IMG/VR virus record: IMGVR_UViG_2737471843_000008
Span: 1 to 25,478 of that record
DNA length: 25,478 nucleotides
Reading direction: 5' to 3' (one strand)
Source of the DNA: a virus
Taxonomy: Duplodnaviria > Heunggongvirae > Uroviricota > Caudoviricetes
This document shows positions 22,848 through 23,195 of the stretch, one piece after another; position 1 is the first letter of the stretch; every line of letters starts with the position of its first letter. A model generated the notes under the pieces. It saw only the letters and a list, made by a program, of their open reading frames with translations. It searched no databases and was not told where the DNA came from. Position numbers and translations under genes: made by a program.

Positions 22848-22922
22848 TGGAGCGGGCAGCGGGAATCGAACCCGCATCATCAGCTTGGAAGGCTGAGGTA
22901 ATAGCTATTATACGATGCCCGC
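22848..22922 (-). tRNA. tRNA-Gly (anticodon UCC)
   Basis: 75-nt cloverleaf folded by hand, encoded CCA, anticodon loop 'cuUCCaa'. Near-identical to E. coli glyT as I recall it. Confidence 0.8.
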
Positions 22923-22925
22923 ATA

Positions 22926-23001
22926 TGGTGCCGACTACCGGAATCAAACTGGTGACCTACTGATTACAAGTCAGTTGCTCTACCTACTGAGCTAAGTCGG
23001 C
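22926..23001 (-). tRNA. tRNA-Thr (anticodon UGU)
   Basis: 76-nt cloverleaf, perfect acceptor, D and anticodon stems, loop 'cuUGUaa', encoded CCA. T-loop is 'tttgatt' rather than 'ttcgatt', with one T-stem mismatch. Confidence 0.65.
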
Positions 23002-23003
23002 AC

Positions 23004-23080
23004 TGGACCGCCACCGGGGACTCGAACCTCGCACACTCAACTTAAAGGGTTGACGCTCTTTCCTGATGAGCTAGTGGCGG
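23004..23080 (-). tRNA. tRNA of uncertain identity (anticodon loop 'ccUUUaa'; possibly Lys-like, non-canonical C33)
   Basis: 77-nt cloverleaf with perfect acceptor and anticodon stems, T-loop 'ttcgagt', encoded CCA. Position 33 is C and the T-stem has an A-C mismatch. Confidence 0.5.
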
Positions 23081-23081
23081 T

Positions 23082-23157
23082 TGGTGGCCCTTGCTGGATT
23101 TGAACCAGCGACCTGGCGATTATGAGTCGCTCGCTCTCACCACTGAGCTAAAGGGCC
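23082..23157 (-). tRNA. tRNA with CAU anticodon, ileX-like (probable lysidine tRNA-Ile2, analogous to phage ileZ)
   Basis: 76-nt cloverleaf, loop 'cuCAUaa'. Sequence closely resembles E. coli ileX as recalled. Confidence 0.7.
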
Positions 23158-23166
23158 GGGCGCAGG

Positions 23167-23195
23167 ATAATAACTTTACGAAATCAATGTTGCAA
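23167..23195 (-). promoter_or_regulatory. sigma70-like promoter driving the tRNA cluster
   Basis: Minus strand 'TTGCAA' – 17 nt – 'TATTAT', ending about 10 nt upstream of the first tRNA 5' end. Confidence 0.5.

Follow-up and report, generated by a model that had tools for sequence, protein, structure and literature searches.

A tRNA cassette with its own predicted promoter in the tR'–holin slot of a lambdoid prophage, including a lysine-anticodon tRNA on an arginine tRNA scaffold

RESULTS AND DISCUSSION

The DNA analyzed here, IMG/VR virus record IMGVR_UViG_2737471843_000008 (Caudoviricetes; positions 1 to 25,478, the whole of which we call the window), carries four closely packed tRNA genes between the late terminator tR' and the lysis genes. 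There is good support for regarding these genes as a cassette for tRNA supply that has its own promoter. We lean towards a broader reading, namely that they constitute a self-contained tRNA expression cassette in the tR'–holin accessory slot of a lambdoid E. coli prophage, with three of the tRNAs predicted to serve rare codons and the fourth, a tRNA-Lys(UUU) probably derived from a phage arginine tRNA, serving, with less certainty, in the evasion of tRNA nucleases.

Four tRNA genes between tR' and the holin gene

Exactly four tRNA genes were found by ARAGORN in the whole 25.5-kb window, all on the minus strand. They are listed here with their scores against the Rfam tRNA family RF00005.

23157-23082, minus strand: tRNA1, Ile/Met(CAU), 72.5 bits
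23080-23004, minus strand: tRNA2, Lys(UUU), 44.4 bits
23001-22926, minus strand: tRNA3, Thr(UGU), 71.2 bits
22922-22848, minus strand: tRNA4, Gly(UCC), 63.6 bits

All four score as cloverleafs above the gathering score of RF00005 (29), and E-values of 1e-6 to 1e-14 place the matches beyond chance. The genes run head to tail with spacers of 1, 2 and 3 nt, and CCA is encoded in every one. A first-pass annotation, made by a model from the sequence alone, had described four tightly packed tRNA genes in the slot that is filled by ileZ-argN-argO in Stx phages, and both the packing and the placement hold. It had also named pseudogene calls as a check on the cluster; identical copies carry the PGAP names tRNA-Ile, -Lys, -Thr and -Gly, with no pseudogene flag. 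When the invariant bases U33, G18/G19 and C56 are considered, tRNA1 keeps all of them, and each of the others departs at one (C33 in tRNA2, U56 in tRNA3 and A18 in tRNA4).

A promoter that travels with the tRNAs

A promoter scan and a footprint of the aligned loci both point to a σ70 promoter just upstream of the first tRNA gene.

23167..23195, minus strand: promoter TTGCAA-17-TATTAT, followed by GC-rich CCTGCGCCC and tRNA1

The –10 element ends 9 nt before tRNA1. Across 85 aligned loci, TATTAT is present in 85/85 and the TTG of the –35 element in 84–85/85; the spacer between them is free of indels, with single positions differing in up to 22 of the 85. The same arrangement (TTGnnn, a divergent 17-nt spacer, TATTAT and 9 nt to the tRNA) is kept in six very different upstream contexts. 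In an Stx2 phage with a different Q gene, homology to the window is limited to 23224-23004, a segment that starts 29 nt before the –35 element and includes ileZ and the second tRNA. The promoter moves together with the tRNAs. These data support the view that the predicted promoter is real and belongs to the tRNA unit. The idea is not new: in the record of VT2-Sakai, ileZ-argN-argO is already flanked by an annotated 'putative tRNA promoter' and a terminator. The earlier annotation had called the promoter strong. Its position and its link to the tRNA unit stand, but the strength is unsupported, as the consensus match is 9/12, without an extended –10 element. The GC-rich CCTGCGCCC that follows the –10 element resembles the corresponding segment of stringently controlled host tRNA promoters.

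An exchangeable unit

The borders of the cassette were set by comparison with a locus (L157) that has the same Q, pR' and tR' and no tRNAs. Homology between that locus and the window ends at 23273 and resumes at 22572.

22573..23272, minus strand: accessory cassette of 700 bp, comprising the promoter, four tRNAs, three hairpins and a predicted terminator
22662..22841, minus strand: three inverted repeats, all perfect, with 11-, 16- and 9-nt arms around 24-, 42- and 37-nt loops, in the spacer from tRNA-Gly to the predicted cassette terminator
22624..22639, minus strand: intrinsic-terminator-like hairpin GCCCGCTTTTGCGGGT, then TTTTTCTTTTC, inside the cassette and 70 nt before the holin start codon

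Close relatives thus either have the cassette or have other contents between the same two junctions. Of the two signals expected of a moron, the promoter has a strong footprint; the terminator, also inside the cassette, is a consensus match only. The putative promoter, the tRNAs and the terminator-like hairpin lie together in one exchangeable unit, which is a moron architecture.

The tRNA content of the slot varies. Among 80 loci whose Q is at least 97% identical, the array reads Ile-Lys-Thr-Gly in 39 (three of which have an additional call), Ile-Arg(UCG)-Arg(UCU) in 17 and Ile-Lys-Arg(UCU) in 11, besides a few other arrangements; of the loci that extend far enough past Q, just one is devoid of tRNA genes.

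Several smaller observations concern the same region. At L157 (∼3285-4858), the cassette is replaced by ∼1.57 kb of unrelated DNA with small open reading frames (ORFs) and an ORF resembling a DPPY-motif DNA methyltransferase. A T8 run and a possible ORF of 23 codons lie inside the middle inverted repeat of the window. Below-threshold Rfam matches in the spacer 3' of tRNA-Gly included nothing convincing.

ileZ and two copies of host tRNA genes

tRNA1 is ileZ, the gene for tRNA-Ile2, in which the CAU anticodon reads AUA after lysidine modification. It matches the ileZ of Stx phages at 76/76 positions and K-12 ileX at 68/76, keeps C4:G69 and C5:G68, and is named tRNA-Ile by PGAP. Describing it as ileX-like, as had been done at first, is correct, but it is more exactly ileZ.

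The third and fourth genes are near-copies of host genes. tRNA3 is K-12 thrU with one change, C56U (75/76 identical), and tRNA4 is K-12 glyT with one change, G18A (74/75). The first-pass annotation had recognized a Thr(UGU) tRNA and a near-copy of glyT; to this we add the close match of tRNA3 to thrU. At the Thr–Gly junction, host bases are found on both flanks, as would be left by an exact 206-nt deletion from the thrU-tyrU-glyT operon (K-12 locus positions 466-671, tyrU plus spacer). Compared with the host thrU-tyrU-glyT-thrT-tufB operon, then, the phage unit has thrU and glyT with 1 nt changed in each, and lacks the 206 nt of tyrU and spacer as well as thrT and tufB.

Both changes fall at nearly invariant nucleotides of the elbow. 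We considered whether they are features of the family and rejected this, as each is a singleton: C56U occurs in 1/101 related Thr copies in IMG/VR, 69 of which have the exact thrU sequence, and G18A in 1/97 related Gly copies, 63 of which have the exact glyT sequence. Being private to this prophage lineage, the two changes suggest relaxed selection in it.

A lysine-anticodon tRNA on the argN scaffold

The first-pass annotation had remarked that the UUU tRNA has unusual features, and indeed tRNA2 combines C33 with U73 and an A51.C63 mismatch. Its anticodon loop is CCUUUAA, that is, C33 plus UUU. In spite of its anticodon, tRNA2 is unrelated to host lysT (47/79 identical). It is instead a relative of Stx-phage argN, an Arg(UCG) tRNA, with which it shares 65/77 positions, including the CCGCCA start of the acceptor stem, discriminator U73, U15, A20 and the A51.C63 mismatch. 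Its low RF00005 score is a property of this scaffold, because argN itself scores just 43.0 bits.

None of the 12 differences between tRNA2 and argN breaks a pair. Four positions at which pairs changed are U7.G66 to C7:G66, G3.U70 to G3:C70, G30:C40 to A30:U40 and U27.G43 to U27:A43. Among 16 distinct members of the argN family, 94.3% of cells in the cloverleaf are paired and three pairs have changed on both sides; the covariation score of the family was matched by none of 500 shuffles and by no slid control. The cloverleaf of tRNA2 has a predicted energy of –22.3 kcal/mol, 2.7 above the minimum free energy and within the range of genuine tRNAs. We used cloverleaf energy and covariation here, having abandoned minimum-free-energy folding of single tRNAs, which gave no cloverleaf even for ileZ.

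The argN scaffold was found with anticodons UCG, UCU and UUU. Among loci with the same Q, the nearest relative of tRNA2 is an Arg(UCU) tRNA, identical at 68/77 positions and throughout the acceptor and anticodon stems. Its loop, CUUCUAA, differs from that of tRNA2 at positions 33 and 35 only. C35U alone would recreate the loop of host tRNA-Lys, CUUUUAA, and U33C is then the sole loop difference from the host. The 113 Lys-type copies that were tabulated all have C33 and UUU, whereas position 32 varies. tRNA2 is most likely a functional lysine tRNA, predicted to derive from a phage Arg(UCU)/Arg(UCG) scaffold via C35U plus U33C. On this reading it is a natural example of Arg-to-Lys anticodon switching.

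Other members of the scaffold family deserve mention. In Yersinia phage YeP2 (MK733260, 601-902), the Q–holin slot holds a member of 78% similarity with anticodon UUG and the non-canonical loop CAUUGCC (A33, C37). The same slot contains Met/Ile(CAU) and Gly(UCC) tRNAs, and the record annotates an opposite-strand hypothetical protein over the first tRNA. A fifth, 82-nt copy of the argN scaffold with an aberrant anticodon arm, labeled Val(AAC) by ARAGORN, follows tRNA-Gly in two IMG/VR loci (L181 and L195) and three others. A G3.U70 wobble is found in argN of Stx2a_F349 (L002, 1645-1721) and in the Lys-type tRNA of a PPompW prophage (L003, 1806-1881), where the window allele has G3:C70. In the acceptor stem, this wobble is the classical identity element for alanine.

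Conservation of the tRNA block

In the MAFFT alignment of the 85 loci, the tRNA block diverges by 0.000–0.021 per column, compared to 0.075–0.28 for the flanks. (Ungapped figures for the flanks were inflated by indels and were discarded.) For tRNA2 the values are 0.003–0.020, a degree of conservation roughly tenfold that of the neighboring DNA. The uniformity of the Thr and Gly copies could be maintained by gene conversion with host genes; of ileZ and tRNA2, the host has no copy. Within the block, tRNA2 is the most variable of the four genes, with 0.010 differences per nt, compared to 0.0026 for ileZ.

Of 5426 complete E. coli genomes, 301 contain the whole four-tRNA block, as do three deposited phages. 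A Lys-type tRNA is present in 798 of the 5426 genomes (about 15%), 279 of these being at least 99% identical. Hundreds of RefSeq genomes already have these exact sequences annotated. PGAP and Rfam make no call where the D stem carries a deletion (as in the PPompW prophages of O157) or where C4U/U8C/C11U are present, and many Lys-type copies are probably decaying. Some phage records leave tRNA2 without annotation.

One could take tRNA2 for a non-decoding relic of the argN family that has gathered loop mutations and is kept by its useful neighbors. C33, the A51.C63 mismatch, U73, the lowest Rfam score and highest variability of the four genes, the many unannotated copies with a D-stem deletion or U8C, and the phage records that omit the gene all agree with such an origin. 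If tRNA2 were inert, what is left would be an ordinary, already annotated tRNA cluster. However, the functional-looking argN scores no better, all differences from argN preserve or improve pairing, and the cloverleaf energy is like that of genuine tRNAs. A relic would also be expected neither to be conserved so far beyond its flanks, with C33 and UUU in every tabulated copy, nor to be found in so many genomes. We therefore consider this explanation improbable.

Rare-codon supply fits three of the four tRNAs

Post-Q tRNA arrays of lambdoid phages have been ascribed to rare-codon supply for 25 years, an explanation that never fitted the Asn tRNA of SfI or the Lys tRNA here. To assess codon use, we set 26 genes of the window (7542 codons) against 48 genes of K-12 (14474 codons). 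The window/K-12 ratios are as follows.

ATA: 2.4
ACA: 2.3
GGA: 2.3
AAA: 0.97
AAG: 1.9
AGA: 4.5
AGG: 6.3
CGG: 3.4

Codons read by ileZ, the Thr copy and the Gly copy are enriched 2.3- to 2.4-fold, and the host genes corresponding to these three are single in the loci read. AAA is at parity, total Lys codon use is only slightly above that of K-12, and one K-12 locus has five tRNA-Lys genes. Rare-codon supply is thus partly supported: it fits ileZ, Thr and Gly, and it misfits Lys because of the parity of AAA and the five host genes. The most enriched rare codons are AGA, AGG and CGG, yet there is no Arg tRNA in this allele. The rare-codon idea proposed at first therefore fits AUA, ACA and GGA, but not AAA, and the codons in greatest excess have no tRNA in the cluster.

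These figures bear on a simpler account, in which all four genes do nothing other than raise the supply of decoders, tRNA2 being an extra lysine tRNA (e.g. for AAG) and its oddities tolerated noise. Besides the enrichment of ATA, ACA, GGA and AAG, this account can draw on the same case made for tRNA-Thr(UGU) of SfI (PMC3636060) and on the identity of the Thr and Gly copies to host genes, from which only a dose effect is expected. It is harder to reconcile with the many host tRNA-Lys genes and the unremarkable use of lysine codons, or with the replacement here of the Arg tRNAs that sister alleles carry for codons enriched 3.4- to 6.3-fold. It also leaves the invariant C33 unexplained. On balance we regard pure codon compensation as rather unlikely.

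tRNA2 as a candidate nuclease-proof tRNA-Lys

Host tRNA-Lys(UUU) is a target of phage defense. AriB, the nuclease of PARIS, depends for its cleavage on U16, U39 and C40|A41, and phage T5 escapes by means of a variant tRNA-Lys altered at the determinant sites (PMC12409363). PrrC cuts the same tRNA 3' of U33 (PMC2610378). OLD of phage P2, the agent of P2–lambda interference, prefers tRNA-Thr(UGU) and needs CNG at 28–30 and 40–42 (PMC12445682). Its reported targets are Thr(UGU), Gly(UCC), fMet, Val(UAC) and Pro(UGG), and the tRNA-Thr(UGU) of lambdoid phage HK446 rescues phages from P2 OLD, which over-expressed E. coli tRNA-Thr(UGU) does not (bioRxiv 10.64898/2026.07.10.737580).

tRNA2 has the anticodon of the targeted host tRNA-Lys, as does the T5 tRNA, and its sequence is altered at the positions by which these nucleases recognize or cleave their substrate. 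It has C16, G39, U40 and U41 where lysT has U16, U39, C40 and A41, and so differs at every published AriB determinant. C33 lies beside the PrrC cut, and CAA at 28–30 and UUG at 40–42 leave it without the CNG motifs of OLD. As judged from these positions, tRNA2 is a possible candidate for a nuclease-proof tRNA-Lys. More generally, we tentatively suggest that lambdoid phages of E. coli keep a fast-evolving argN-family scaffold at the second array position, retargeted through its anticodon (UCG, UCU or UUU; UUG in the Yersinia phage); that the UUU/C33 form may be uncuttable by AriB or PrrC-type nucleases; and that C33 may have been selected as the sole base separating the loop from that of the host at the PrrC cut.

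A number of points weigh against our reading. First, U33 is almost universal in tRNAs, and C33 should weaken the U-turn. Second, E. coli tRNA-Lys has A73 and tRNA2 has U73, and A20 is an identity element for arginyl-tRNA synthetase (ArgRS); because of these two bases, the predicted charging of tRNA2 with lysine is uncertain. Third, the mismatch to the AriB determinants is by itself weak evidence, as any tRNA on a foreign scaffold would differ there. Fourth, the Thr and Gly copies can have no intrinsic resistance to nucleases, since their anticodon arms are those of the host, with the AriB site and the CNG motifs that OLD requires. We had considered them as nuclease-resistant variants and rejected this, their consensus sequences being identical to host thrU and glyT; because of that identity, they would act only by dose, and the failure of over-expressed E. 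coli tRNA-Thr(UGU) to rescue phages from OLD counts against such an effect. Finally, the relative variability of tRNA2, the variants that escape PGAP and Rfam, and the absence of an Arg tRNA for AGA, AGG and CGG must be set on the same side.

The target lists raise the further question of whether the array as a whole is directed against defense. On that account, Lys(UUU), Thr(UGU) and Gly(UCC) would be carried as the main targets of the OLD-family Toprim tRNases (AriB and P2 OLD) by which lambdoid phages are restricted, and the phage would simply out-produce the nuclease by dose. Three of the four tRNAs are among the seven reported targets out of ∼40 species (hypergeometric P ∼ 0.013, calculated post hoc), Thr(UGU) and Gly(UCC) being among those preferred by P2 OLD, and HK446 has Asn(GUU) and Thr(UGU) in the same slot. 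The host-like anticodon arms and the lack of rescue by the E. coli tRNA speak against this possibility as well, and ileZ is not among the reported targets. Moreover, the preferred targets are also minor tRNAs for rare codons, so that the overlap is confounded with codon compensation. We find a wholly anti-defense array quite unlikely. A division of labor within the array, with tRNA2 alone possibly directed at the nucleases, is what we favor. Carrying Lys, Thr and Gly tRNAs, this very common prophage cassette offers a testable case of tRNA counter-defense in temperate phages.

Expression in the prophage and after induction

Two sources of transcription can be envisaged. In the lysogen, the cassette's own promoter would transcribe the unit at some level, with a stop at the cassette terminator. 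After induction, RNA polymerase modified by Q would proceed from pR' through tR' and the cassette, as expected from lambda biology, and we take this to be the main use. RNase P and 3' exonucleases would then release the tRNAs from the late transcript, at high dose. ileZ and the thrU and glyT copies would supplement low-copy host isoacceptors for AUA, ACA and GGA. The role of tRNA2 would lie outside codon supply, in furnishing a tRNA-Lys(UUU) that goes unrecognized by AriB of PARIS, by PrrC/RloC and perhaps by OLD-type enzymes, and thanks to it late translation would survive a triggered defense based on a tRNA-Lys nuclease.

The first-pass annotation had instead suggested that the tRNAs may be expressed from the repressed prophage and alter host decoding of rare codons. 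With expression mainly from the cassette promoter, the benefit would fall to the lysogen, through better translation of genes with rare codons or through a guard against tRNase toxins (colicins, contact-dependent inhibition). In favor of this, the cassette combines a conserved promoter of its own with a terminator-like hairpin in a single exchangeable unit, as morons do, and the GC-rich discriminator is of the kind seen in host tRNA promoters. On the other side, the private changes of the Thr and Gly copies at invariant positions suggest weak selection in the prophage state, and the tRNAs of HK446 directly follow tR' with no promoter annotated, such that expression from the late transcript suffices there. 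Lysogenic conversion thus seems unlikely to be the reason for the cassette.

Relation to known tRNA arrays

The closest described relative is the ileZ-argN-argO cluster of Stx phages (933W, VT2-Sakai and Stx2a_F349). It lies in the same slot after Q and tR', has an identical ileZ and a second gene on the same scaffold, and is preceded by a homologous 67-nt segment bearing the promoter; a promoter and a terminator are annotated in VT2-Sakai too. The clusters differ in that the second tRNA has UUU and C33 in the window but UCG and U33 in argN, that argO (UCU) is replaced in the window by the thrU and glyT copies, and that no stx genes follow. The earlier statement that the set differs from that of Stx phages is therefore right for the UUU, Thr and Gly tRNAs; ileZ, however, is the same gene, and argN and the UUU tRNA are paralogues.

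A second type of array, the Asn(GUU)-Thr(UGU) pair found after Q in SfI, Sf6, ST64T, phage 21 and HK446, shares with the window the Q-to-lysis slot and a Thr(UGU) tRNA. For SfI, the authors explained the Thr tRNA, but not the Asn tRNA, by codon use (ACA) (PMC3636060). The HK446 tRNAs diverge from host genes and have no annotated promoter between them and tR', whereas the window unit has a host copy for Thr and its own promoter. In HK446 (NC_019714, L128), the two genes occupy 35097-35252, directly after tR' and before the holin gene, and have no annotation in RefSeq. The D arm of the Asn tRNA resembles that of glyT. We considered whether the HK446 Thr tRNA might be a thrW fragment at attP and rejected this, as ARAGORN places the gene in the Q–holin slot.

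The tRNA-Lys(UUU) with which T5 counters PARIS likewise carries the anticodon of the host target and departs from its sequence at positions 16, 39 and 41. It belongs to a large tRNA array in a virulent phage and has a normal U33 loop, whereas tRNA2 has an Arg scaffold and resides in a temperate phage. With other lambdoid morons, which are independent promoter–gene–terminator units set among essential genes, the cassette shares its exchangeability, its own promoter and terminator-like hairpin, and the presence of other cargo in a relative with the same Q; it differs in carrying a set of RNA genes where they carry a protein gene.

tRNA arrays in the Q-to-lysis slot, the putative promoter and the rare-codon explanation are all already in the literature or in database records. 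We did not find described the UUU tRNA as a member of the argN scaffold family that has switched anticodon and has an invariant C33, the Thr–Gly pair as a trimmed copy of a host operon, or the match between the makeup of the array and the target lists of PARIS and OLD. A search of the literature on ileZ/argN/argO and on the expression of prophage-encoded tRNAs in O157 returned nothing useful.

Other features of the locus

On the minus strand, the gene order is DUF968, RusA, Q, the pR'-like promoter, the tR'-like terminator, the tRNA unit, a 290-nt spacer and holin, followed by YdfR, lysozyme, Rz/Rz1, HNH, terminase, and head and tail genes of HK97 type.

23368..24063, minus strand: late antiterminator Q gene, an ORF annotated 'bacteriophage antitermination protein Q' in a 99%-identical locus
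23356..23384, minus strand: predicted pR'-like late promoter TTGCAA-17-TATATT at the end of Q, from the promoter scan
23275..23305, minus strand: tR'-like intrinsic terminator AAAACCCGC-CCACAA-GCGGGTTTT, then a T run (hairpin at 23281-23304)
22339..22554, minus strand: class II holin gene, the first lysis gene and the downstream border

The position of the pR'-like promoter relative to Q and tR' is that known from lambdoid phages. The predicted leader RNA that ends at the tR'-like terminator is ∼75 nt long. The pR'-to-tR' leader region (23275-23359, minus strand) has sub-threshold Rfam matches to isrK and isrJ, small RNAs of Salmonella prophages (22.7 and 24.5 bits; E-values 0.02–0.055), and may give rise to a terminated leader RNA of the 6S/StxS/IsrK kind. 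Rfam matches to 'Plastid-ycf2' on the plus strand were dismissed as mirror images of the four tRNAs. Further downstream, a lipoprotein ORF resembling Rz1 (20985-21170) lies out of frame inside an Rz-like gene (20923-21405, minus strand), the usual arrangement for lambdoid spanins.

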